Notes: a model not told the origin generated them from the sequence alone. DNA of 64,000 nt from Callorhinchus milii (GCF_018977255.1 NW_024704750.1:3968001-4032000); one strand, 5' to 3'; counted from the stretch's first letter, positions 2,520 through 64,000 are shown. Program-made: numbers and translations.

Positions 2520-2918
2520 CTCAAGAACAAAGAAAACCAGTTAATTCAAGATGAGTTTCTTTCCAGGTCTTTTTGTTTAAAAATAAAATTTAAGCAAAGA
2601 AACCTCATTGCAGGCTATTAATCCAGTTGCGTAATGTCCAGAAATTCTGTAGGAAAGTCCATTTATTCACCCAATCCTGTCCTTCACTTTCCGTAACACC
2701 TTGAGCTAGGTGTGCTGACTATGTGTGAGCTATTTCCAGAGTAATTCTGTCTACATCATAACAGCAGAGTCTATGCTTAAACCTTTGCAGAAAAGACAAC
2801 ATCTGATTTGTGTAACTACTCTTTTTGTGTGAACACTGTGGGTCTATCAACATTTATTGTGGGTCTAACAATTATTAAAGAGGAATTCCAGGCNNNNNNN
2901 NNNNNNNNNNNNNNNNNN

Positions 2919-3035
2919 ACCCCCCCCCCCTCCCCCCCGGCTCCCCCCCCCCCCCCCCCCCCCCCCGGGCCTCCCCCCCCGGGCCTCCCCCCCCCTCCCC
3001 CCGGGCCTCCCCCCCCTCCCCCGGGCCTCCTCCCC
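2919..3035. repeat. C-rich low-complexity array (CCGGGCCTCCCC units)
   Basis: Repeated cccgggcctccccc directly after the 25-N gap; reverse complement of the array at 7786-7871. Confidence 0.85.
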
Positions 3036-3167
3036 GCAATGGCGTTTAATCAACGGATTTTTTTTTCTCGAACAAAAACGATGGCCCCCGAAAGCGGTTC
3101 AGTACCTCCCACTCAACCACAGGGACACGTCTCCGGGTTTCACGGTATTTGGAGAAAAACTGTATGT

Positions 3168-3902
3168 GCCCCCACACCCCACACCACACACACACCCCCA
3201 CACCACACCCCACACCCCCCACACACACACCAACAACCCCCACACCCCACACCCCCCACACACACACCCCCCCCACACCCCACACCCCCACACNNNNNNN
3301 NNNNNNNNNNNNNNNNNNNNNNNNNNNNNNNNNNNNNNNNNNNNNNNNNNNNNNNNNNNNNNNNNNNNNNNNNNNNNNNNNNNNNNNNNNNNNNNNNNNN
3401 NNNNNNNNNNNNNNNNNNNNNNNNNNNNNNNNNNNNNNNNNNNNNNNNNNNNNNNNNNNNNNNNNNNNNNNNNNNNNNNNNNNNNNNNNNNNNNNNNNNN
3501 NNNNNNNNNNNNNNNNNNNNNNNNNNNNNNNNNNNNNNNNNNNNNNNNNNNNNNNNNNNNNNNNNNNNNNNNNNNNNNNNNNNNNNNNNNNNNNNNNNNN
3601 NNNNNNNNNNNNNNNNNNNNNNNNNNNNNNNNNNNNNNNACCGCCCACACCCCCACACACACCCCNNNNNNNNNNNNNNNNNNNNNNNNNNNNNNNNNNN
3701 NNNNNNNNNNNNNNNNNNNNNNNNNNNNNNNNNNNNNNNNNNNNNNNNNNNNNNNNNNNNNNNNNNNNNNNNNNNNNNNNNNNNNNNNNNNNNNNNNNNN
3801 ACCACCCTCCCACCACACACACACCTCACACACACACCCCCCACCCCCCACACACACACCCCCACCCCCACCACACACACCCCCCCCCCCACACACACAC
3901 AC
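3168..3902. repeat. CA/C-rich low-complexity sequence interrupted by N-gaps (3294-3639, 3666-3800)
   Basis: Irregular cacaccccacac repeats flanking assembly gaps. Confidence 0.85.
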
Positions 3903-4282
3903 GTCATGACTATCAGACCAGTAGTTCTAAGTCTGGTGTGATGTCGGACGGTCGGTTTAGTTCCTGTGTTTTTCTTCCGCTATAAAAGGGGTTACGAAAG
4001 AGTGATAGGAATGAGAATCCGGTTGGATTTTTCTCTTTTTTTTTCATTGGTAAGTCTCAGAAGTTCTCAGGATCCTCATACTCCGGATTCGTCATCACCA
4101 GCAGGAGAGCTTGTTTTGTTACCTGGATCTCATTGGAACCTGTTCACCCAATAGGCTATGCACATGTGGCCAAATAGATGAAGAAATATAACTTTGATCT
4201 GTAGGATTATATGGAATAATTTATAACATCCTGGTGAAACTTTTAATTCATGGAAGTAAATTAATCTGTATTTAATTTTCAG

Positions 4283-7200
4283 ACTGCAATTAAAGGAAAA
4301 CTACAAGAGCTCGGGGCTTACGCAGGTACAGTATAAATGATGCTGTGTGTCAATATTTTACTTATAATAAATCACAAAACAAATAGTCTTTGCATTTGAT
4401 AGAGCATCTAAAATGTCAACATCTCAAAGCACTTTACAGTAATTACTATTAAATAGGTTGAATGCAGTAGTTGTGCTGATTTGAAGAACACAGTCCAGTT
4501 GACAGTCAATAAGGTGTTTCTCGACACTTGCCAAATCTCTCGCAGCTACAAATTGCTGCTTATAAATATTTCTTGAGTTAGGGATACACTGTTCTCGTGA
4601 ATATGGATCATTACCCGAGGAACTCATGCAAAATTAAATCCGGAAGTTTTTTTTTCTTCTAAGTGTGCTCACAGGCTTAAGATAAATAACTGGACACATC
4701 TTGTTTAAATTATTTCCTTTTACACTTTATAACTTTATTTCCTTAATTCTTCTTCTGAATGTGTAGATGAAGAACTTCCTGACTATATCATGGTTATGGT
4801 AGCCAATAAGAAGAGCCAACAACAGATGACTGATGATCTCTCTCTGTTCCTGGGAACCAATACAGTGAAATTTACTATATGGTACTTTTGTTTTTGCTTT
4901 GACAACAATAGCACGTGAATTCCCTTTCTGTTCTCAACACACCGGTGTCATATATTCTTTCCCGTATGATACCTGTGTTTTAGTTATAGAAAGTCAGCGT
5001 AGCTTTATTTTCTTGTAAAAACAATGGCCTGTCCTATTACGGTAGTTGCTTGGCAATATCGTGCCTTATGTAAAATCAAGAATTGTTTCGCTTGCTGTGA
5101 TAATAAAGGGTATAGGGAAGGATAAGAGTAATGTAATTGGAGTATATAACTGGTGGAAAGCTGGCACCAGCACAGAATGGCTCAGAATGGATGTTAATTA
5201 ATAATAATTATTATTTTTATTATTAGAGTGTTGATGTGTTGCTATTTTTATTTAGGCTGCATGGTGTCCTTGACAAGCTACGCTCTGCAACTGTTGGTAA
5301 GTACCTATATAGCTCATTTCACTTTTAAGGTACGTACAACTTTTTATTTTAAACATAATTTTTTTTCACAAGCGACAGCTTTCACATGCAAAAGAAATGA
5401 ACAGTATTTTGACTTTGAAGCTTCAGAATTCAAGTTGACCAGTTTTGTTGTTGAGAATTTTTTTTTCTCTTTTTACAGAGCCCACCGGCTTGAAGTCAGC
5501 ATCCGACTACACAGACAGCATATTATTCTCATCTTCAGAGAAAATTCAAGCAGCTGTCAGTGGGAGCAGTGATCTGAGGATTGATGATGTTCGTAAACTT
5601 GCTGTCTCTAGCACACGCTTTGAAAAAAATGATTCTCGAGTTACCACAAGCTCATTACATGAGCAGACAGTAGCCAGTGTCAGGTAGGAGAGATAATAAT
5701 ATTTGCTTTTGTTATAGTGCCTTATCATGTTGTCGAGATGTCTCAAATGGCTTCACAGGAGATACTGTAAAGTGAATAGTTTGTATATTTTGTGGGTGAA
5801 ATGCACAAAATGATAGTACAATAAAATCATAATTAATAATTGATTAGATGTACTAATGCTGTTGTCCTTAAGCATTGAGTACCTTCAGCTGCAGGTTGGG
5901 TAAGTGTTGTGGTTGATAAAATAAGCTTTAGCAATGTATAGGTAGAAAAATTGGAGAAAAATCAAACTAGTTTGAGATCTACAATATCTTGAATGGAGAG
6001 TGAACAGAAAGCTTAAAATTATACTCGGTTGAAAACTTGTGTGAAAGCTCTGTTTAGTTGGTTAAAACATTGCTCACTGTGTGGAGCAGCAAAGACCAGA
6101 AAGGCTCATTTTTCTAACCCAAACCTATTAATTTACAAAAACTATCTTGGAAATTCATTAAAGCTAGTGATTTTGTTCAATACTTTGCAAATTAAAAATA
6201 GAATTTCTTACTTTGTTCAATTATCCTCTGCTTTGTTGATCTTTCCCGAATCAATCCCAGTGCTACATTTTAGTACAAAACACGCTTATATGATGAGTCC
6301 GTGAATAAAATTTGACATAAAATTCTTTGGCTCTGTATACTTTTCACTGTTAGTGTTCTGATTGACAATGTGCGGTTAATGATTTGCATTGATTCTGTTT
6401 GTCTGAATGGATAAATTCCTCAATTGTTCTGGTTTCTTACTTCAACGCAGGCCATCCTCTACTGAGAGAAATGCATCTCAGTTAATGTCAACCGTGAAGC
6501 CCTTAATGGAGCCAGTTTCCTCTGAAGCAGTGATTGACATCAAACCTGAACTAGATGATCTGATAGATGACGATCTGAACATTTTGCAGGACCTTCCTGC
6601 GGCATCCAAGAAGAAGCCTGTGGTGACATTTACCTACAATGTTTCTCATCCAACGTTCGAGGGTTACAGGCCATCAGAAAATGTTACCCAGCACTGCAGG
6701 GCATCTGAGAGCAGCGTCCAGTCTTACAGGGTGCCTCAGAACAATGTGCAGGCGTGTAGGCTTGGGGAAAGCAACCCGCCAAGCTACAGACCAGAATGTA
6801 CTGGCCACACTTACAGATCACCTGAAGGTGTCTTGCAAACGTACAACAGGCTATCAGACAGTGGTTTACAGATCTACAGGTCCTCAAAATCTAGCGTGGA
6901 TCGACCAAGTAGAGATGTGAGTATCATTTCCTAACTGAAACTGGTTAGATTGGGAATCCCCTGGGCTTATTCTTTCTAATGTTTGTCTGACGATTGATCT
7001 CATGTTACTTTTACAGGTTTGTAAGGTTTAATTTGGTAAATATGTTGATAGTTCACGCTTCAGTGATACCTGACAAATCAGCCACGTAATCTCAATTGTG
7101 CTGTTGTTGCATTCGCCCACAAAATATATGCGGTCAATTCACTTTACAGTCTATTAAGTGAAACGCTTTGAGACGGCGAGAAGACGTAAAAAGCGCTATA

Positions 7201-7611
7201 TCAAATGCAAGGATTATTATTATTTATTATTATTTGGATTCGCCTCCGTGCGATGTATCAACACAACAGTCACTTAGATCATATAAGACTGTATTTCTTA
7301 TTGGGTACCTGATGATTTTAACACTCCAGAATTTAGTCTATTTAATGCATTCCCTTTGTAAAATGTATTGCTACACTTATTTTTGGATAATTTTTAAGAT
7401 AAAATTGTAAAGATAATGCTAAGAATGGGTAACTGTTACATCCTCTTTTGTTTCTCTAGGACGAGACTGCTCGGAAAAGAAAGGGGCCAATCATCAGCTC
7501 TGTGGTTAAAGTGAACAAGACGAGTGATGGCGAGGACGAGGAAGATGATTATGGTTCAAGAACGGGGAGTCTTCCCAGCAGTATCTCGGTCCCAGCAAAG
7601 CCCGAAAGAAG
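4283..7611 (+). CDS. ZC3H14: ZC3H14 exons 2-7 (N-terminal PWI-like domain and following region), inverted relative to the rest of the gene
   Basis: Exons 4283-4325 (TAIKGKLQELGAY), 4767-4881 (DEELPDYIMVMVANKKSQQQMTDDLSLFLG), 5256-5296 (WLHGVLDKLRS), 5479-5683, 6451-6916 (SEAVIDIKPELDDLIDDDLN) and 7460-7611 (RKRKGPIISSVVKV...SSISVPAKPERR). All GT-AG. Confidence 0.93.
7100..7233 (+). mobile_element. SINE 3' fragment, same family
   Basis: tcgcccacaaaatat...aaaagcgctatatcaaatgcaaggattattat. Confidence 0.8.
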
Positions 7612-7785
7612 GTACCAAAAGCAAGCGTTCCGACTGTTAAATTCATTTTTTGTTAAGTGGTTCGCAATACAGTACACTGTTGCCAATCCATTTCCTGTGC
7701 CAAGTTGAGATGCTACATGAAATTGATGCAGGTAAAAAAAACTATTTTGGTTACAATTTTGTTGTGATGCATTAATGTTGTTTCA

Positions 7786-7871
7786 GGGGAGGGGGGGGGG
7801 GGGGAGGCCCGGGGGGGGGGGGGGGGGAGGCCCGGGGGGGAGGGGGGGGGGGGGAGGCCCGGGGGGGGGGG
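7786..7871. repeat. G-rich array (GGGGAGGCCCGG units)
   Basis: ggggaggcccggggg repeated; inverted counterpart of 2919-3035. Confidence 0.85.
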
Positions 7872-7953
7872 TAACGGCACCTCACAGGGTGGAGGGCGGT
7901 GATGTTGGGCCCTCTCCCCCCAGGAGGCCGAGCCCGAGGCCGAGGCCGCTCAC

Positions 7954-7989
7954 CCTGATCTTGCGGCTGATCTCAGTGCCTATTTCCAT
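7954..7989 (-). CDS. ZC3H14: ZC3H14 exon 1 coding part (MEIGTEISRKIR)
   Basis: Reverse complement reads ATG GAA ATA GGC ACT GAG ATC AGC CGC AAG ATC AGG|gtgagc, matching the known ZC3H14 N-terminus. It lies in a CpG island. Confidence 0.93.
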
Positions 7990-8135
7990 ACCGCCCTCTG
8001 TCTGTCCGTCTGTCTCTCGCCGCCGCTCTCGCGTCTCCCCGCAGTGAGCCGCCCCGGAGGCTGCCGGGAACTACCGAGCGCCATTCGTGTCAAACCCGTT
8101 CCGTTCGCGCGATTTCAAAACATTGACCTCAAACG
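7990..8135 (-). promoter_or_regulatory. ZC3H14 5'UTR / CpG-island promoter
   Basis: CpG-rich stretch upstream of the ATG. Contains GGGAACTAC (ZNF143-type), CGCCATT (YY1-type) and TTTGAAATCGCGC on the minus strand (CHR/E2F-like). Motif roles are inferred. Confidence 0.6.
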
Positions 8136-8139
8136 CCGT

Positions 8140-8557
8140 CCACCACCACCATCACCACCACCCTCTACCCCCCCACCCCTAACCCCCCCCACCCCCCCCT
8201 CTAACCCCCCACCCCTAACCCCCCCCACCCCTACCCCCCCTCTAACCCCCCCACCCCTACCCCCCCCTCTAACCCCCCCACCCCTAACCCCCCCACCCCT
8301 ACCCCCCTCTAACCCCCCCACCCCTAACCCCCCCCCACCCCTACCCCCCTCTAACCCCCCCACCCCTAACCCCCCCACCCCTACCCCCTCTAACCCCCCA
8401 CCCCTAACCCCCCCCACCCCTACCCCCCCTCTAACCCCCCCATCCCTAACCCCCCCCCACCCCTCTAACCCCCCCATCCCTAACCCCCCCATCCCTAACC
8501 CCCCCCCTCTACCCCCCCACCCTCTAACCCCCCCCACACCCCACCATCACACACACA
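8140..8557. repeat. C-rich minisatellite with CCCTAA (telomere-like) cores
   Basis: Repeated cccctaacccccccacccctacccccc units. Confidence 0.8.
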
Positions 8558-9569
8558 GATTAAAGCCAGAAACTGAAATCGTTTCACTGAATTTGATTTT
8601 TTTTTCTTCAGAAGAACATTAAAGAAGTCTGTCGTGGGCTCAATGCCCGGTCGGTCCGCCTGTTCGGGTGGACCTTACGGATCCCGTAGCGCTGTTCAAG
8701 AAGAGAAGGGAGTGTCTCCTGATGTTCCGGCCAACAATTCCCCAAATAAAAAATTGGTCCCTCACTCCACGTAACCCTCATCCGTATGGAGTGCAACTCA
8801 GTGCACTTCAGCTTCACAGGTTTCCCCGAACAGTTCGTATGATCGATCGCTCTCCATCCATCTATTTCCAATGTTACTAAAATGATTCGGCACAAAGTAT
8901 TCTCAAAAGTAGGGATTTTGTTCTGGATTTATTGTCATCTATCTTTTAGCTATTACACCAGGAATGAACGAACATATGTCCCACCGATCATGATCAATCT
9001 CATGCTCTAAATTTGGAGATTATGTCTGATATTTATCGGATGAAAGTTGCGAGTTTAGTATTTTAAATATTTCCAACAACGGTGGAATGGAAATATTTAT
9101 CTATTTTAATATAAAGTATTAGACGGTTGTATTCATAGAATTTTTTTTTAAAGCATTCAAGAATCTACAACTTGGAAAAGGGCAAAACAATTCTAATGTT
9201 TTAAATATTAATTTGGTTATGGATGTTCCAAAATATTTTATAACTAAGAAACAAGCGCACAACTAAAATATTGTTGCTACTCTTAAATCGGAGGTTATGA
9301 ATTAAACAGGATTTTTTAAACAGTACCATTTTTGTGTAGATATTAAGACAAAGCTTTCCTTTGCATTAGAGTTCCATGTCAAATATTTAGGTTTTTGTTA
9401 CAAACAAATGTTGATATTACACGAAAGTAACAAGTGATATTTGTCATACAATATGAAATTACAGGATTGATATCCAGTTCTAGTGATAATGGACGGCAAA
9501 CCACCACCACGTGGTCGCATTTGAAAATAAATAAAACATTCTGGAGATCCACAGCATCTATGAGATATG

Positions 9570-11915
9570 CAAACGTTTAATTTACAACTCTTTATTGCAA
9601 TATCTTCTGACACTGGTTTCATTACGGTACTAAAACACAAGTATGGGAGAGTGGATGAAAAGCGGTCGGGTGAAGAACGTGCTACAGACATAAGCTGAAT
9701 TTTTTTGTGTCTAAAATTCTATGGTTCTGTAGTATAACTGATCTTGATAGAAGATTGCAGTACATTGTACAATAGTGATTTCAAAGAGCGATTCTGCGCT
9801 TTTGTGCAGTTAAAACAATTAATCATTTGCTTTGTATACACTAAAAAAAGCTAGAGGCAACTGCAAAAAGAATAGTGTGGCAACTTTTTTTAAACTTGCT
9901 GGCAGCCCAGAACTAATTTATATTTAGTTACGAACTTGGAACCGACATGGTAACCATGTGCTACTGGAAAATCCTAACAACTGAGTGGATTCAGTTGTTT
10001 GCCATTGATTAACAGTGCAGTTGCTGGTAGTCAGTTAAATGTATGTTGTTGGCATTAAGTATACATTTCAATAACATCCGGCACGTAAGTATGTGTAGTG
10101 ACATCAGGTATCCAGTGAAGATGTAGAGATAAGGAAGGTGTATTTCAACCTTGGAAATATCAAGAAATAGCTTGTAGGAGCAATGACCAAAGTAGTATCT
10201 ATAAATATTTAAAATGTACATTGCATATATTTATTTCCATAGCAGAATATAAACTGAATCTCTTTTCCATAAACATATTACATAATCAATTCAGTTCAAA
10301 TACAATCTGTACATTGTTTCACAAACTTTCAAAATTCACAAAATATCGTAGGTCAGATTTGTAAAACCATAAATCAATATGCAAATCATACAATACTCAA
10401 TATGAATGGATAACTGAACACTGATAAAATGGTATGGCATACATTGACAAAAACATACATGCAGTAGATTAATCTTCACGACTAACCTTCATGAAGTGTA
10501 ACCCTGTTCAATTAAATTTAGAACATGGTGTAAACTGCTTCTACATAATTTCTATACATGAAAAACATTACAAAACATCAGATTGTCCTTCATATTTCCA
10601 TGATTTCTGTCCTATAACAGGACGAGACTATTCTTTTGACTCATTACATGCACCAATAGCTATTGAAATTCATAAAACAGGTGGATCGTAGTGTGAAGAA
10701 TTATCAAACATGAATAAGTTTGATGAGGAACATGGATACTACAAAGGAACCCTTCACTTTAACGTTTTGTAAACTTACTATTTAGCAGCAGTCTCACGAT
10801 GCACCACACCTCCCGGAGTTTAAATTCATAATGAAGTTGTTTACTTCAGTTTTACAATGAAAATTTCACACAAAAGCCAGTTGTGTGCAAAGTACCTAAC
10901 TATCAAATGGGTATAATATTAAAATATTTTGCAGACTTGAACCCAACTTTCATATGAGCTAAAAGATTTAAATATGCAAGGCAAATGCTGCATTGTTAAA
11001 ATAGAAAATGTGTTAATGGCGAATACAGCTGTTAAAATGGGTAAAAGATTATGTAATTCAATGAATTACATAAAACCACAGATTCTATTGAATTTGTAAG
11101 CCTATCTGAACAAACTGTCTATTCAAAACATAAATAGGATTTACTTTTTAAACTGAATCATTCCACCTCACTTAGTAAAAAGTGGAACTCACAATCTTTA
11201 TATTCATCCCTTTTGTAACCCTTGAAACGTAATATACCTAATGGAACATTTTACACATTCTGTGACCAGCCCTAGAAAGGTAAAATCCCAACTCAAACCA
11301 TTATTTCCTCCATTTGAATCAGTTCAACTTACTTTTTAAAAAGCAGCAATTCACATTCACTCATTCTTTTCTCACATCATATCCTGTCACTGCACTTTAT
11401 TCCAAACTAACATTCCCTGTTATACCCAACAATCACTTCCAGGAAACTAAAGTATGTGCACACTAAAACTTGATAAAACTATAATGGCCTGTTAGTTCAC
11501 AGAGCATGAATTTATTTACTTTTATATATTTTATCAGCTACTCTATCCACTAATCTATAACCTATACTAATTACATAGAAAGACTTACAAAACAAAGCCT
11601 TCACTTCGTAGAATAAAACATTCACTTCATAAATATTCCCCACCTGACATTGTTTAATCCCTACTTTTCCAAACATTTGCCAATGTAGGTTTTTGTATCA
11701 AAGGTAACAGAACACATGAATATATGTATTTGAAAAATATTTCTCAAAATACTTGCTACAATTTTATAATGGAGTTTAAAATGTTGACTTCTAAATAACC
11801 ATTCTGTGGATGTATTTTTCTACCACTACCCAGTAGGAGGGGAGAGTTTTTACTTCATTTGAAACTAATCTACAACCAACTATTTTATTCGCAACACACA
11901 TTCAAGGACTCGGGA
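9570..11915 (-). other. Probable PTPN21 3'UTR with AATAAA at 9596-9591
   Basis: AT-rich, SINE-free stretch downstream of the stop codon. TTTATT at 9591-9596 on the plus strand. The end position is inferred. Confidence 0.45.
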
Positions 11916-23859
<11,944 letters not shown>

Positions 23860-25869
23860 GGCAGAATAAAATAATTGCAAAATTTCCTGCACTTGTTCCC
23901 CTTACTCTGCTTGCAAGTTTGTTGTCTGCAGCATGTACAGAAGTCATCCAGCAGCCAGCAGTAGAAGGTTGAGCCACTTAAATCGGGAAAGCATTGCCCT
24001 ACGAAACAAAACAGTTGAATATTCAGCATGGTGTAGTGTTCCTCATTCTCTCAACAAAGTGCAATCTCCACATACGAAATGGATAATTCCTTTATTTGCA
24101 TAGTTTTGAGAATGTATACCTGTAAAGTTTCTTCAACGTATACTATGCTTGTTTTTCACCCCCTTCATTCTATATTCCCCTTCTTGCCATCTACTCAGTA
24201 TAATATTAAGAGTTCAGCAAACCTGGTTGAAATCTGAAACCTACTATTCCACAGCATAACCATAGAGCATCAGAACAAAGTACTGCACCATCATATTGTC
24301 CCTTTATTGAGTTGTTCACTGTTTGTGAATTACAATGCTTAATCCCAACATTGTTAGATCTAATCCAGGATATGACGAGCAAAGTGCAGGAGGACAGTAT
24401 TGCAATTTGACCAGAGAAAACAAAAACATCTATCTGGTCTTTATTGTCTATTAAAGTAGAACAGAACCCTGTGGGGTAGACTAGAACACAAACAACATAC
24501 TGGTACAGTAGTGGTGAATGAACAAAGCTGAGGATACTGAAAGAGAACTTGACAGACTGCATATTAAGCTACTTAAAGAGTTGGCTAATACAATCAATCA
24601 CACCTGGCAGGTATGTGTGGGCTGAAATATTCAGTTATGTTTATATCTGAATATTTCAATCTACAGTACTGTAACATCCAAATAGCTGAAGTATCTAAGG
24701 TGTATAGCCAGAGGAATGGAGCACAAGTTTCATGACATGAGTCATCTTGTACAGAACACTGGCCCAGCCCCACCTGAAGTTTATCCAATTCTAGTTAATG
24801 AACAACACTATTGGGATCCTTGCACTGAAGATATACATAACATAATGGGCCAAATAGCCTTCTGTGCTGTAAATTGCTATGTTTCTAAAATTCCACGGAG
24901 GGTAAACAAAATCGTATCTGAGATTAGGTACCTGAGCTAAAGAAGTTATGGAAACCAGTTTGCACTGGAGGAAAGGCAGCTCAGGGGAGACTGAATCGAG
25001 ACGTTTTGCACACAAAACAGTCACTCCACTTGGCAACGTATCGTGTGAAGCACTTTGAGTCGTCTCTACAACGTGATAAGGCTCTGTATCAAATGCAGGG
25101 ATTACTGTTATTATTTTCAAGATTGTAAGTGCTACAAATAAACCATCAAAATGTTAAAACACAAATCAGAAACCGCACAACTCGTTTAGAGGAGAAAAGA
25201 CGAACAAAAGTTTTGATTTGCTTCCCACAGAACAGCAAATATATAGCCACGGTAGCAGTTAAGATGGACAACATTAGCAAAATTCAAGAGAGTGCTAAAC
25301 AGATGTTTGCTGGAAACTGAAGTGTATTAGAAATCGAGTATTATGATTTTGAAATGTTGCGACCAGAGCAAAGTCTTCGCCAGTTTGGGTTATTTGCATT
25401 TATTTAATAATATTTAAGGACTTCATGTAATGCAGGTCAATCGACATCCCATCATTCATTAAAAATAACAGTAGTACACATTTACTGACAGAAATTGCTA
25501 CTCCGGCCCTATCCGGAGCTGTTTTCTTTGGTTTGATCTGCGATACCGAGCTAATGACAACACGTTTTAAAAGTTTCACAGCGGGAAAAGCGATACAACA
25601 ACATACATTGGTTCGCGTGTCATTCCGCAATCATCCTTCGCTTTGGCTCAACTTTGACGTCAACGAACTGCCGACTTAAACTGGAGCTTAACAAAACACA
25701 ACCGAGCAGGAGGTGTGTGTGTGTGTGAGTGTGAGTGAGAGAGAGTGAGAGAGAGACCTCCTCCAAGAAAAAAAACATTTGCGCGAAGGCAATAACCGGG
25801 TGCAAACAAAGAGAGCAGCTCTGTGTGTGTGTTTGGAGAGGTGGGGGCTCTGCTCTGTGTGTATGAGGG

Positions 25870-25901
<32 letters not shown>

Positions 25902-25949
25902 AGGGTATGATTTAGATGGCACAAAAGACAAAGCAGGGAATGTCAGGCG

Positions 25950-27300
25950 GGCAAGGAGTCAGGGTTGGGTTGGGTGGAGGTGCGGCCATGGCGGCGGTGG
26001 TGGTGATGGTGGGGGGGGGAGGGACGGGGGAGGGAGGCAGGAATCACGCGGCACCGTTTACCAACACTGACAGGCGGCCGTGAAATTCGACGGCTGAGAC
26101 TCGACCAGGAGCGCGAGCGTTCCTGGCGGAGCCGGAGGCCCAAGTGTCTGTGCCGACCCCCCCCAAAAAAAAACGGAAAGGAGGAATAAGTTCAGCCCTC
26201 GTACGGTTTGGTCCGGTCCGGCCCGGCGCCATCTCCTAAACCCGGGGAGGAGGGGGGGGGGGGGGGGGGGTGAAGAGAGCTGAGGAACAACAAAACCCCT
26301 CACACCTCCCGTCTCCCACTCGGGGAAAATCCCGCACGACCCACCGGCCGCCAGAGAGCAGTTGGCGGCACCAGACCGAGGGGGACACAGATGAGGAGGG
26401 AGGGAGGGAGGGAGAGATGAGGAGGGAGGGAGGGAGGGAGGGAGAGCGGGCGGGCGGGAAGGGCGCGCGTGGTGGGCCACCAACCGTCTGCGCTCCGCTC
26501 CGTCCGTCCGTCCGTCGGTTACCTTTCGAATGCTTCCAGAAGGATCGGCTCGCGGGGCTCCGGCCGCCACGCTGACTCCTCTCCGTCGTCTTCTTCTTCC
26601 TCCGCGCTCCCGGCAATAGTTCCCCGCCGCTGCCGCCGCCCTCTCACACTTCCGCTTTCTCCCTTTTCCCTCTCGCACTCTTAGTATGCTTCCGCCACTC
26701 CCCGCCCCGCCCCCCCATACACGCCCCGCCCCCCCCGCCCCGCCCATGCCCGGCGCTACTTTCAGGTGGCACAGGGATCCCTTCTGTTTGCAACAGTAGC
26801 ACAGCACAGACTTCCCCCCCACACACACACACACACACACACAGAGGGGGTTCAGGGATCACTGCTGCACCACACGCATCCGAAGCAAATCGCCACCAGT
26901 GCCACACGAAGCATTAGCATTAATTTTTATGTTAGAAAATTAGGAAAAAGTGTGACCGTTTCATTCTACGACCCTTTCGTTTGCAATTCGATGATTGTTT
27001 GGGGGGGGGGAGGACGGGTTTGCGGGGCTAATGGTGCGGGTGGGTGGGTGGGTGGGTGGGGCGGGCGGGCGGCGGGCGGGCGGTCGGAGTGGGTTTGAAT
27101 TGGAAAAGCTCTTTGCGAAGAGCCGACACAGACACGACGGGCCGAATGGCCTCCTTCAGTGCCGTACGATTCTATGATTCTATTTTCTCCCTTCCTCCCC
27201 CTTTCCTTCGGGGCCGATTGTGTTTAGTTCAGTCGCTGGATCGGGAGCTGATGTGGGGAGGTGGCGGCTTGCGGTGTGAAAAGTCCATGACATCAGGCAC
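25950..27300 (-). promoter_or_regulatory. PTPN21 CpG island: promoter and non-coding first exon (donor AAG|gtaacc at 26523)
   Basis: Very GC/CpG-rich, clustered CCCCGCCCC GC boxes at 26700-26745, a canonical donor, and an acceptor for exon 2 at 23998. Confidence 0.7.
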
Positions 27301-33800: not shown

Positions 33801-36800
33801 ATGGGACAATTAAATACTAACCACAGTTTAATTCAAACATTTTATTAAAAAAACTCATACAATACACATCAGCCACTAATTCCCCTTTTGGCTATTTATA
33901 AATGCTCCAGATTTCCCACTAACATTATCTACTACCTTTTGGGTTTTCTGGAGAACAAGATTAACTTTACAACAAATTCTAAGATCATACCCCACTTACT
34001 CTGCTCGAATCTTTCTCATAATTGGTGACTTCATTCTTTTTGGTAAGGATAACCTGAAGGCAATTCATTTTGGAAAGAGAAAAAAAGTTATTTACCATCT
34101 TTTAACGATATGAGGTTCCAAAGTGAAACCTCCACCCCTTGTTTTTTTGCAATGAAACATTACAGTGAAACTGGTAACTAGAACTATTTACGGTAAGACA
34201 GTAAGTTTCTGTATAAATACAGTCACTATATTTCACACAAAATTTTGTGAAGTGCTTTGAGACATCCTTCCAGTGTAATTAGGCGCTTTACCAAATGTAA
34301 TGATTATTATTTATATAGTCTGTCCCCATTAATAATACAGCAGTTGAGGTCCATAAAAATAGTGTACAACTTTAGTAGAGGATATTAAATAGGTCTCAGT
34401 ATATTTTGAGAAGACCTGGTGCAGGAATTCACCTTAAGATTTAGCTCAAACAAGACATAAAGGACAAAGTGTTCTTTCTGCTGCTTTCATATTCTTTCCA
34501 TCAATCTGGGTTGAGAGACTGGTGGATGGACTGAAACTGAATCCACCGCTTGAACAGAATTTAACAGAAATTGGCTTAATAAATACTACTTTTTGAAATA
34601 CATTTGTAGAGCTGTGAGATGGTGAACATAAATACAATTGTAGTTCGGATGACACAATATCTTTTCCTTCTCCTCAGTTGGATCTTTTGCAACAAGACAT
34701 TTCATACGTACACCGATGTAGAGTAGTTATCTGCACTGTGCTCAAAACTATCTTTCTGCCTTTTGCTGTGCAAATGGTGAGCAAAAACCTTCCTGTCCTC
34801 CAGTTCTTCTGCAGACCACATCTGCCCATTTTGAGAATCCTAGCAAGACAAAGGACACATTTTTATTTGCAATTCTACTGAAATTAACATAGCATTTATG
34901 ATTACCATTAGGCTCCATAAGGCTTGATATTTACATTCTAAGGAATTGCTAGTACACCTCATTAATTCTGCAATATAACACAATATAGTCTGCAACTTGA
35001 ATTTATTTTTAAGTTTCAATTTCAGGAATATTTGTTTCAACTTTGATATGGTTTGTCAAACTTTGAGAAAATAATTATATTATCACTTGCTCCACAAATG
35101 CTTTTGATCTACAATACGTTCAACACATTCAGTCTTATCATGTTGTACTTGGGAAATGTGAAGACTTAAATCTTTCAGCAAAACACTTTTAAAATTGTCC
35201 AGCGACACAATTGACTGGTTGTCGCCTAACCTGCTGTGGTGCCAACTGTGAATAATTCCTCTTCTCCTGTGAATATACATCTTGAAAGCTGTAAAATATA
35301 AATAAATAAAATCCTTACATTTGATATAGTACCTTACATGGTCACGAGGATATCCCCAAAATGCTTCACAGATACACTGTAAAGTGCAGTGACTGAGTGG
35401 CGTAGGCGCAACTTAAATTAGTGTGATGGCAGCTAGCAGGATACTATTAGACATAAAAACAGAAGTCGCTGGGAAAACTCAGCAGGTCAGACAGCATCTA
35501 CGGAAAGAGGAGGATGTGTTAATGTTTCAGGTCGATGACCTATCGTCAGAATCTCTCCATAGAATTTGCCTGACTTGCTGAATGTTCTCAGCGACTTCTG
35601 TTTTTGTTTCAGATTTCCAGCATCTGCAGTATTTTGCTTTTGGAGACTATTAGACCTGTCATCCAAGCTGATGTTTTTGGTCGGTAAAGCCTGTCTTTAC
35701 GCAGCAGACAGCTCCGTAAAGCTGTCTGTTTACTAACAAAATGGAGATACTCTCTTCACTCTAAGGAAGCAAAGTATTTCAAACACTTTTTTTTTAAATG
35801 GTTGTCTTCCTGGGGGGGAGTTCTTCATATTAAAAGTATTTTCCCTCCTTTAAACTGTCTTGTTGACACAGGGTTGCTGTCAATGTAATTGAAATTCGCA
35901 AAGCATAAAAGGTACCAAACACCTGAAGAATAAAGTGTGGGACTGGATTCCAGGGTTAAGGTTGTTTCAGTTTTTGTGTGGTAACAATGCTGGAAGCATC
36001 AGGAGAAAATGGTCCTCATTAACAGGGCTTTACAGTACCTGTCAAAATCAGTCTGCGTTTCTTGCTCTATCAGTATCTTTCTTGACTTCTGTTTCTTCTG
36101 TACAGGAGTGTAAAACCTGTACTGGGACAGAAAGGACTGTGCTTCATTTTTCAGAATACGTGGAGTAAACGGTTGATGCCCATCTGTGAAATGGTGAGCA
36201 TGTTTCTCTAAAACATCACCGCTGTAGGTTTTTTGGTGGGGATCCTGAAATGGTCTGTAGCAATGCTGGCTGTTGGCATTCGTCGATGATGAATCAAAAG
36301 AAATGCCATGACGCTGTCGTTGGGATGCCGAGATTCCGTCATTCAGGTCAGAGTAGGCCCTACTGGAGATTTTCTCAATGGTTTCTTTACCAATGTTGGA
36401 AGTGGAGGGCAATACTGAATACTTCTCTTTCGAAGAAGCAAAGGACCGGGCTGAATGCACATAATTTTCTAAATCTGTGGATGGCTCATTGCGTAGCAGT
36501 ATGGAAGGATTCTGTAAAAAGGGAAACAAACTGTAAAAGAAACTAGGCTCTGAAATGTACTGACATACTTGTGCAGGTTTTAATATATGACTCTCCACCC
36601 AAACATAAACTGTGAATACAAACACCTCCGAAACATAGTTTTCATTAGCAGATGTTTTATATATGGCTCCCATGAGCATGGTTAGAAGGAGGTAATGTTT
36701 CAGTACAGGGACGTTATCTGAAGAAACCATCTTCCAATGTCACCCCATGACATTAGGGCAAAAAAATGCCCTATAGGGCAAAAAAATTGTCAAAATGCAA

Positions 36801-60300: not shown

Positions 60301-62824
60301 CACAGAACACACTGTAAAGTGAATTGACTGTATATTTGTGGGCAAACGCGGCAGCCAATTGCGCACAGCAATGTCCCACAAACAGTCGTAGATTGAAAAT
60401 GACCAATTTATTATTGTTTTTGGTTTTGGAGGGATTATTTCCGACGTGAAGGGTGCCAGACAAGTGTAATTTGTTGTTCATTTTATGTTATAATTGTTAT
60501 GATTGTTACTGCAGCTGTTGGGTAAAAAAGGGTGACTAAAACTTGTTGAACAGTGAAAATTAACCTGCAGTGTTCCAGTACAAATGCATGATAAAAAGCC
60601 ATTTAAAAAAATGACGTCTTTATAAAATATGTACACTTTGCTCTGTGTGACCTTTAACTCAGGTGGAGACATAGATATCCATTACCGAGAATGGTATAAA
60701 CCCTTAGTTTGGTTCTGGATTCTAGTGGGTCTTGCCTACTTTGCAGCAGTCCTCAGCATGATCGGAGACTGGCTCCGTGTGATATCCAAGAAAACCAAGG
60801 AAGAGGTAGGACGCCACTCTTAATGTTGGAAAAAACATTGTAAGATTGACATACTAAATTGGTAATGCAAACAAAACTAAAGTAAAACTGAGCTTGCTGC
60901 AGTGTTTTAAATAACTGTGGTTGATTCAATAACGTTGTAAAGTTAACTTACCAAAGGAGAGTACGTCCCTCATAAGACCCCTGTCATCCCTTGTTGCACA
61001 TTAATAATAATAATAATAATCCTTGCATTTGACATAGCACCTTATCACTTCTTTGAGACGTCTCAAAACATTTCACAGAACGTACTGTAAAGTGGATTTA
61101 CTGTTATTTGTGGGGGAAATGCTATTGGATTTGAGGATGCTGAATAAATATATAAATAATAATATAACAACACCTCTTTCACTTGTGGGACCTGGGTTCA
61201 AATCAGCCTAGACAAAAGAAATTAAACTCTCTTCCTTCCAATTGGAGTTACGAGATGATCATTATCCGTTCACACAGTCTCAATTTAAATCCTCGGAGAC
61301 GTAAGCCCAGAGGAAACTGTTTTCCTACAGTAGTTAGTACAGATGGCACTCATTAACATTGTTTTTTTTCTTTGGTGACAGAGATCACATTATTAATACT
61401 TTGCTTTGATCAGAAATTAATTACTTTTCCTATAGTATTTGTCACAATATTATTCCTATAAGTTTTAATTATCATTTTAAATACCAAGGAGGTAAAAAAA
61501 CACAGATTGTGATATTATCACCGGTGATATTACCACATGCTGCAGTTTTCCATCAATGCATGCAAAGAGCAAGGGAAAGCTCCATTACACAGAGTAATGA
61601 AGTAAATTGATTCAAATATGTGCTAAGTTTCTACAAATAAATCAGTTAAGATGTTTTTGGCTCTTTGCTTCACTGGTGTTTTCTTGCATGTTGGTTGGGA
61701 ATTTGTCAATAAGGAAATTCTTCAGGATGATTCCTCACTTGTCAGGAGATTTACAATGAGTGAGAACATCGTGTTATCTGCTGCTCTGACTCTGCCAGGA
61801 TTAGGATTATAATAGGATTTACCAACAACAAGAGAATTAACTCTCCCCCTCCTCCGCTCCCCCACTTCTTAAAACTAAGTATCTCCAGCAAATGCTAGAA
61901 CTTTTGAACTCTGCTTCAAGTATCACTGCTTTAAATGTAATAACTGTGGTTGGTTCAATAATGTTGTGAAGTTAGCATACCGAAAGGGAGCCCTTGTTGC
62001 ATGTCCAAAATAGAGCATTTGCAGATGCTTAGTTTTATATTTAAGACATGTGAGGAGGGGAGTGGTGGTGGGGAGATAGAGCATTGGAGTTGATCAGCCA
62101 GGAACAGACTCAAGGCACTGAATGGCCTACACCTGTTCCTACGTATTTGCTAGATATTTAGTTTTATATCTGCTTTACGTCTGCGTTAAAAAATAAACCT
62201 CACTTGCTGTGTGCTTGGCAGGTCGGGGAGATCAAGGCTCACGCTGTTGAATGGAAAGCAAACGTACAGGCAGAGTTCAGGGAGACACGGAGGCGGCTGA
62301 GTGTGGAGATTCACGATAAGCTCCAGAGAGCAGCGACCATCCGGAACATGGAGCGGAGAAGGCTTGGCTTGGACCAGCGAGCGCACTCCCTGGACATGCT
62401 CTCCCCTGAGAAACGCTTGGCGTTTGCCGGGCTGGAGACGGGCCAGTTCAAAACCTCGTCTCAAGAGAGCATCGATGGCAAACCGAACAATCTGCAGCAT
62501 AAGGAGCAGCAGTACAACGAACACATGCAAGGATCGTCAGAAGACAACATCTACAATAAATTTGGATTGTCAGTGAGAGTGGCCAAGAGGTTCAAAAACA
62601 AGGAACTGAAGAAAGAGATACCAGAGGATGTCAGGAAAATTTATGAAACGTTTGCCAATGGTACTTACACTCTGGACGAGGAGAACAAGGAACAGGAGAC
62701 GGAGAAAGAGTGTAACATGGGTGTCCCAGCAATAACAAATTATATTCAGCACCCGGAAGATGACAGAATGTCCAATGCAACCAAAAATCCAGAGGATAGA
62801 AAATTAATCGAGAAAAAGATATGA
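47538..62824 (+). CDS. KCNK10: Two-pore domain potassium channel TREK-2 (K2P10.1), isoform with TREK-2c-type first exon, 7 exons
   Basis: Exons 47538-47589 ([17 protein letters not shown]), 50196-50524 ([18 protein letters not shown]), 51693-51810 ([20 protein letters not shown]), 55209-55369 ([27 protein letters not shown]), 57685-57871 ([18 protein letters not shown]), 60663-60805 ([30 protein letters not shown]), 62222-62824 ([32 protein letters not shown]). Two pore motifs, TIGYG and TVGFG. Confidence 0.97.
48090..48418. repeat. ~80-90 bp tandem repeat x4 containing (CT)n
   Basis: TTTTCCCAATTGTGAATCAATTCC recurs four times, separated by variable CT tracts. Confidence 0.9.
50663..50850 (-). 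mobile_element. CR1-type LINE 3' end
   Basis: acataggaacaggaggaggccacccagcctctcgagcctgttccgccatt...gatcatggctgatct resembles the chondrichthyan CR1 3' terminus. Confidence 0.65.
52061..52255 (-). mobile_element. SINE 3' half, same family
   Basis: (AAT)n ccttgcatacgatatagcgcc...gccaattgcgcac. Confidence 0.82.
53565..53760 (+). mobile_element. L2-type LINE 3' fragment
   Basis: cctttaaggcatggctcaagaccctcctttttgacc...gtgaaaggcgctttacaaatgcaattttgttgttg. Confidence 0.6.
54105..54292 (+). mobile_element. SINE 3' half, young copy
   Basis: Near-perfect reverse complement of 60245-60410. Confidence 0.88.
54640..54818 (+). mobile_element. L2-type LINE 3' fragment
   Basis: Encodes [10 protein letters not shown]; tail gtgaggggtgctatataaatgcaaattgttgttg. 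Confidence 0.6.
56695..56980 (-). mobile_element. SINE, long subfamily
   Basis: Tail, body, internal segment and gtaaggaaacttgc are present. Confidence 0.85.
60232..60440 (-). mobile_element. SINE 3' half, young copy
   Basis: Near-identical to 41575-41770. Confidence 0.88.
61003..61120 (-). mobile_element. SINE 3' fragment
   Basis: (AAT)n ccttgcatttgacatagcacc...actgtaaagtgg. Confidence 0.75.
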
Positions 62825-64000
62825 GATAGGAAATATCTTTCATATCAGATCCGAAAGAAACACTTGGTTAAACAATGCAGAAGATTGTTTTGCAGAGGGT
62901 TTTGTTTTTAAATTGCTGGACATGTGCCTTATTATAATTAACAGAAAAAAATCAATGGGAGATCATACATTTCACATGTGCATGATCTACACAAACCTTT
63001 TCAGTGGATTTATTGTGCCCCCAATGATATAAGTTGATGTACCAAATATCTTACACGTCAGCTTGCGATTAATCAGTTTTTTGATCTGTGGGAATGTGTT
63101 TGAAGTCTAACATAATGTAAATGTGGACCAAAATGAACAAAAAAACCCAGTGCCAGTACCAATGCAGTATACCTTGCTTAAGGAAGAAGAGGGTAGTTCA
63201 ATGATATGATAATCAGAAGCGCCAAGCAAGCTCCGTGGATGATCATTGCTGCGATGATTCCGACTTCAATGAATTCATTGTGACGGATGGATGTCAAACA
63301 TTTCTAAACAAACATTTGTTGTAGGGGATCTTGCTCTTTTTAAAAAAAAGAGCAGTTTTTGAGCATTTACTCAACACCTTCTGCGTGAACTCTTTCAAAA
63401 ATCACAAGGTCGTATTTCTGATACATCGAGTAAGAATTCTGCGGCAGATTAATGCCTTTCCAGAATTGTTGGAGACTCACTTAACAGAGACTGAGGTGTG
63501 CATGCCCATAACTTTCTAAGTTTACTACTAAGATTTCTAGGACTGGTCTTGATGATTATTGATTGCACAGGGATCTGAGGGCTCCCTCGGTTCCTGCTTT
63601 TACAACATTTCCTACATTAGGTTTTAAAAAAAAATTGGGTGTTTGGGGACTAATATAACGCAAGAAGTAAGTAATACATCAAAAAAAAAGAAAGCATGTT
63701 CGTGTCTTTATCTATGATCATTCTCTTCTTGTCTGTGATCTGCGATTCATTTACAGTTAATTCGTAAATGCTTATTGAAAAATGGCATCAATAGAATTAA
63801 GACAGAGCCTGGTAAACGAATATTTTTGATCCATGATTTGCCATTTTTGTTATTCCCACATCATTCAAGGCTGGTGTTTGAGCCCTCTCTGCCCTCTCTT
63901 TATGTTGGGTTTCTGGTTGTCCTTCAACTGAAGAGGGTGGACAGACAAATCAGGCACTTAACACAGCTCCCTACAGGGGATCAAGATGGACTAAAAGCAG

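Follow-up and report, generated by a model that had tools for sequence, protein, structure and literature searches.

The ZC3H14 locus

The gene for ZC3H14 is displayed on both DNA strands within a stretch of 64,000 nucleotides (nt) of the Callorhinchus milii assembly (992 megabases), which we call G000. This stretch, hereafter the window, corresponds to G000:C9:3968001-4032000, and positions without that prefix are counted from its first letter. As displayed, exon 1 and exons 8 onward occupy the minus strand, with exons 2-7 on the plus strand. The eight exons at issue are listed below; each is placed by its splice sites and reading frame and by identity to P0001, a database protein of 697 amino acids (aa) whose source name is Callorhinchus milii ZC3H14.

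7989-7954, minus strand: coding exon 1 (36 nt, phase 0), single copy in the assembly
4283-4325, plus strand: exon 2
4767-4881, plus strand: exon 3, with a weak PWI match below the cut-off
5256-5296, plus strand: exon 4
5479-5683, plus strand: exon 5
6451-6916, plus strand: exon 6, one full-length match in the assembly
7460-7611, plus strand: exon 7, whose 3' end equals the loose end of an exon-8 contig from run X5 (described below)
2519-2419, minus strand: exon 8, its acceptor with G at -3, placed also by the X5 contig

The splice sites of exons 1-8 are all of the GT-AG type (AG at seven of seven acceptors, GT at eight of eight donors), and the phases agree. The eight joined exons yield 386 codons without a stop, every one of the 386 identical to the start of P0001. 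The initial annotation had described exactly this arrangement, with exons 2-7 inverted between exons 1 and 8, and the exons, splice sites and codons bear it out. It had also joined exon 1 to the plus-strand exon at 4283 and the exon ending at 7611 to the minus-strand exon at 2519; both joins match in phase and keep the frame open. The strand split is thus confirmed as an observation far beyond chance. The exons after exon 8 keep their order on the minus strand; they span from 1446 to a point about 1.8 kilobases (kb) beyond the window's left end.

A decaying gene or pseudogene is ruled out by the zero stops, the intact splice sites and the complete codon identity, as the initial annotation had held. 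A second copy or alternative haplotype elsewhere in the assembly was also sought, and DNA searches with 6451-7786, 7872-8135 and 3030-3170 each returned one full match, the window itself; the remaining matches of the 6451-7786 search are a dispersed repeat.

Exon 6 is 100% identical to P0001 and shares 59-70% identity with 11 other shark and ray sequences. Among its 26 protein matches, 24 are named, and all of these carry ZC3H14 or its short label, bar one hypothetical-protein name that is also labelled ZC3H14. Relatives have an intact, full-length protein. P0001 contains five stretches of Nab2-type CCCH zinc fingers (PF14608, E-value 7e-23), encoded by minus-strand exons left of the window, and an N-terminal PWI-like domain (PF01480) that falls in exon 3 is matched weakly, at 17.3 bits against a cut-off of 22. 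Judged by its predicted zinc fingers, its exon-6 identity and its PTPN21-like and SPATA7 neighbours, the gene is an ordinary vertebrate ZC3H14 orthologue. By orthology with the Nab2-type proteins treated in the cited part of PMC3988569, it would act as a poly(A)-tail regulator that binds poly(A) RNA and controls tail length.

Intron 7 in other animals

The displayed order was compared with assembled contigs from sequencing runs. A run search listed 24 runs, 18 of which hold part of the inverted block. Four of them, X1-X4, are whole-genome runs from four samples of one study, each containing about 80% of the block's words; X5 comes from a second study and is presumed, as a guess, to be RNA. Contigs were aligned to 7300-8125 (X1-X4) and to 1400-2918 (X1, X2, X4 and X5), and a join was inferred when the length, depth and letter ranges of a contig matched on both sides.

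In all four DNA runs, one contig tracks the window up to 7786 and then departs from it with letters left over, and no piece crosses 7786/7787 among the listed contig pieces of X1-X4. Three of these contigs could be followed to the other side. The X1 contig (1319 nt, depth 10.6) places letters 90-577 on the plus strand at 7300-7786 and letters 577-1319 on the minus strand at 2893-2151. The X2 contig (1098 nt, depth 9.12), which reads in the other direction, has letters 521-1007 on the minus strand and letters 1-521 on the plus strand at 2373-2893. The X4 contig (1915 nt, depth 8.89) has letters 1338-1825 on the minus strand and letters 1-1338 on the plus strand at 1556-2893. The X3 contig, aligned on the right side alone, departs at 7786 with 93 letters left.

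On the intron-7 side, the end of the block therefore continues into the opposite flank in three of the three DNA runs aligned on both sides, and the contigs land where a collinear gene had been predicted beforehand to place them (about 2151, 2373 and 1556). The two placements of each contig share exactly one letter, a G present on both sides. Each of these contigs thus passes from the plus strand at 7786 to the minus strand at 2893 with one shared letter, so that in X1, X2 and X4, other animals of the species, intron 7 is an unbroken 548 nt and exons 7 and 8 lie on one strand. The initial annotation had named this very junction, about 7786 joined to 2893 on the reverse strand, as the test of an assembly artefact, and these contigs contain it.

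X5 agrees with this order. A 605-nt contig covers 2492-2893 and continues for 203 letters beyond, and an exon-8 contig carries 27 loose letters that are the end of exon 7, so that X5 includes a contig in which exons 7 and 8 are spliced together. X5 also shows exon 8 joined to the exon that follows it. The exon-8 acceptor (2520-2522, minus strand) has a G at -3, an uncommon acceptor, and the X5 contig shows it in use.

A scripted inversion of 2919-7785 sets all eight exons in order on one strand, as the initial annotation had anticipated. Introns 1-7 then measure about 1.5 kb (uncertain, with the repeat described below counted twice), 441, 374, 182, 767, 543 and 548 nt.

Edges of the inverted block

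The block and its surroundings are composed of the following features.

2919-7785, plus strand: mis-oriented block of 4.87 kb with the rest of intron 1, exons 2-7 and the first 174 nt of intron 7
2894-2918, no strand: 25-N gap at the left breakpoint, N in the assembly, hiding no intron-7 bases (contigs join 2893 directly to 7786)
7785-7786, no strand: right breakpoint, where intron 7 is displayed as joined to the repeat, without N; the contig leaves the window here in four of four DNA runs
7787-7871, minus strand: C-rich intron-1 repeat, copy on the exon-1 side, made of C runs with GGGCCT units in between; the plus strand is 84% G here
2919-3035, plus strand: block-side copy of the C-rich intron-1 repeat
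2520-2893, minus strand: rest of intron 7 (whole intron 548 nt once joined)

The initial annotation had placed a 25-N gap at the left edge and low-complexity sequence at the right edge. Both stand, with the refinement that the block ends at 7785/7786 and that the two edges hold one and the same C-rich repeat.

The 25-N run is still N in the assembly, where the N runs at 3294-3639, 3666-3800 and 45959-46633 have letters and are masks. No other run of two or more N occurs in 440 kb of the assembly (the 240 kb ending at window position 10,000 and the 200 kb right of the window). A masked stretch is an unlikely reading of the 25-N run, given the letters under the other three, although a stretch masked in the assembly itself would also read N. 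In gap filling, overfilled gaps would by convention be written as exactly 25 N. The same 440 kb contain six single N, each after a homopolymer (G000:C9:3764935, 3810866, 3814508, 3889860, 3919441 and 4055724), which point to homopolymer uncertainty in the assembly.

The exon-1-side copy of the repeat directly follows the start of intron 1. Both copies begin with the same A-C11 opening, their C runs are ragged (lengths 2 to 24), and the repeat unit of 12 letters is confined to the two copies in the 494 kb scanned. The pair may represent a single intron-1 repeat rebuilt twice, once from each unique flank, a soft reading at such low complexity. Farther along intron 1, a degenerate CA/C-rich repeat takes up about 730 nt (3170-3900); part of it is masked in the window, and the assembly shows its letters.

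Origin of the displayed arrangement

We consider it highly probable that a 4.9-kb block with ZC3H14 exons 2-7 was written backwards by the assembly, and that the animal's own gene is an ordinary one, on a single strand and spliced in cis. A mis-oriented block was also the principal proposal of the initial annotation, and it is supported at the intron-7 breakpoint by the X1, X2 and X4 contigs. The flip is most likely a feature of the assembly, not of the animal.

The error could have arisen in four steps. First, the C-rich repeat early in intron 1 would have been impossible to read through, leaving the block poorly anchored. Second, the sequence would have been cut in intron 7 and the block placed in reverse. 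Third, the repeat may have been extended from each of two unique flanks, giving two noisy, overlapping copies. Fourth, one join would have stayed a run of 25 N, and the other would have been closed with nothing to support it. The cited portions of PMC3504050 and PMC9635638 describe, as an artefact of long-read gap filling, gaps that are overfilled where scaffolding went wrong, inversions included, and the sequence so filled is rich in GC and G-quadruplexes according to the passage taken from PMC7757076. The relevant part of the PBJelly paper lists inversions among the suspected causes of overfilled gaps and counts at least 25 N as a gap (PMC3504050). A non-exhaustive literature search found no report of this locus.

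Several points weigh against an assembly error. Among the listed contigs, none bridges the intron-1 side, where the initial annotation had placed the second junction of its test (about 7871 to about 3035), and the exon-1-side contigs of X1 and X4 end in the G-run, at 7870 and 7869. The intron-7 cut is clean, loses no base and falls in unique sequence spanned by short-read contigs, and no N marks the right join; a real inversion would look like this too. X1-X4 belong to one study, the comparison covers their listed pieces, and contigs drop rare variants. Finally, the window differs from all four aligned runs at 7627, and from all four runs aligned on the left side at 1877, 1902, 2142, 2150, 2631 and 2799; X1 also has a second contig of 69 nt that lacks the differences at 2142 and 2150. 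These letters are either consensus errors or another haplotype, and X1-X4 may accordingly not represent the haplotype of the assembled animal.

Some of these points favour the more probable of two alternatives, namely that the assembled animal has a real, rare 4.9-kb inversion with breaks in a fragile, G-quadruplex-prone intron-1 repeat and in intron 7, a heterozygous null ZC3H14 allele whose haplotype was picked by the assembly. The clean intron-7 cut, the right join without N and the departure of the window haplotype from the aligned runs at several letters are all compatible with it, and none of the runs that supplied the contigs is known to be the assembled animal. Against such an inversion, the left join is an N gap without a counterpart in 440 kb, and the repeat seems to occur as two copies that open alike, not as two halves of one, a soft argument at this complexity. 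The collinear path is alone among the listed pieces in all four DNA runs, with the reservation already made for rare variants, and small inversions introduced by assembly far outnumber private inversions that disable a conserved gene. We regard a private inversion as improbable.

A normal or reversible displayed layout, with the mRNA made by two trans-splicing steps between opposite-strand transcripts in the manner of mod(mdg4) or by flip-flop DNA inversion, is barely credible: the exons are intact on both strands and an inverted repeat pair brackets the block as displayed, but the X1, X2 and X4 DNA contigs have exons 7 and 8 on one strand, the X5 contig passes 2893 like an ordinary unspliced intron, and the collinear orientation has no repeat at the intron-7 breakpoint and hence no inverted pair to recombine. 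The switch or trans-splicing that the initial annotation had entertained thus finds no support, and the displayed layout as the normal state of the species is contradicted.

Full-length database proteins were rejected as proof of collinearity. P0001 and a second full-length isoform, P0028, are complete even though the displayed DNA is not collinear; such models can evidently be patched from transcripts, and they show an intact mRNA, not the order of the DNA.

Comparison with known systems

Assembly mis-orientation at a filled gap, in the form set out in the cited parts of PMC3504050, PMC9635638 and PMC7757076, resembles this locus in the misjoin beside a gap and in the unbridged extension of flanks into GC-rich, low-complexity sequence. 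The likeness is one of pattern, not of known use of PBJelly for this assembly. A difference is that plain flank extension would have run the intron-7 flanks into each other, which is not the case here, so that a separate clean cut would be needed.

Compared with the vertebrate ZC3H14 and Nab2-type poly(A)-binding proteins of the passages cited from PMC3988569 and PMC8260979, the protein is no different; the displayed orientation of exons 2-7 alone sets this gene apart.

In Drosophila mod(mdg4), according to the cited part of PMC4387717, exons lie on both DNA strands and common 5' exons are trans-spliced to alternative 3' exons. One reading frame running over both strands is likewise what is displayed here. 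The mod(mdg4) layout is real, however, whereas independent DNA places the present gene on a single strand, its exons are constitutive, and trans-splicing would have to take place twice. Because X1, X2 and X4 carry exons 7 and 8 on a single strand, the defining property of the mod(mdg4) type is absent.

The F8 intron-1 and intron-22 inversions are repeat-mediated and depend on long inverted repeats that the normal allele has at both breakpoints. They are similar in their intronic breakpoints and in the gene knock-out that would result, but here no repeat lies at the break in normal intron 7, where the join shares one letter.

Database records and consequences

A further database protein, P0027 (350 aa, 'ZC3H14-like'), begins in exon 3 and, past the end of exon 7, runs on into intron 7, its tail matching 7612 onward. 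It is likely a spurious record produced by the local assembly error. An extra A after 7627 would alter its intron read-through tail. The two full-length isoforms, P0001 and P0028, are one alanine apart near the zinc fingers, in exons left of the window; the difference is probably a tandem acceptor.

The arrangement carries no biological weight, as the gene is most likely ordinary. Its practical weight is that it marks a local error in a reference genome, and the orientation needs correcting by anyone mapping variants, RNA reads or structural changes here. If the inversion allele were real, a wild cartilaginous fish would carry a natural null of a conserved RNA regulator of the brain; in people, loss of ZC3H14 leads to recessive intellectual disability, as stated in the cited passage of PMC8260979.

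Neighbouring features

Just upstream of ZC3H14 exon 1, 8140-8550 is a C-rich minisatellite with many CCCTAA-like units. It is followed by a PTPN21-like gene on the minus strand (about 8550-27000), with FERM_N at 23530-23901 and Y_phosphatase at 13960-14310. This gene is on the same strand as ZC3H14 exon 1 and SPATA7 (HSD3 at 36002-36739). Human PTPN21 lies head-to-head with ZC3H14. Both ends of the stretch at about 8550-27000 are GC-rich and of low complexity, with no N gap there, and the orientation of the PTPN21-like gene may reflect a true difference between lineages or else another mis-oriented block. The plus strand carries a two-pore K+ channel gene at about 50000-63000.

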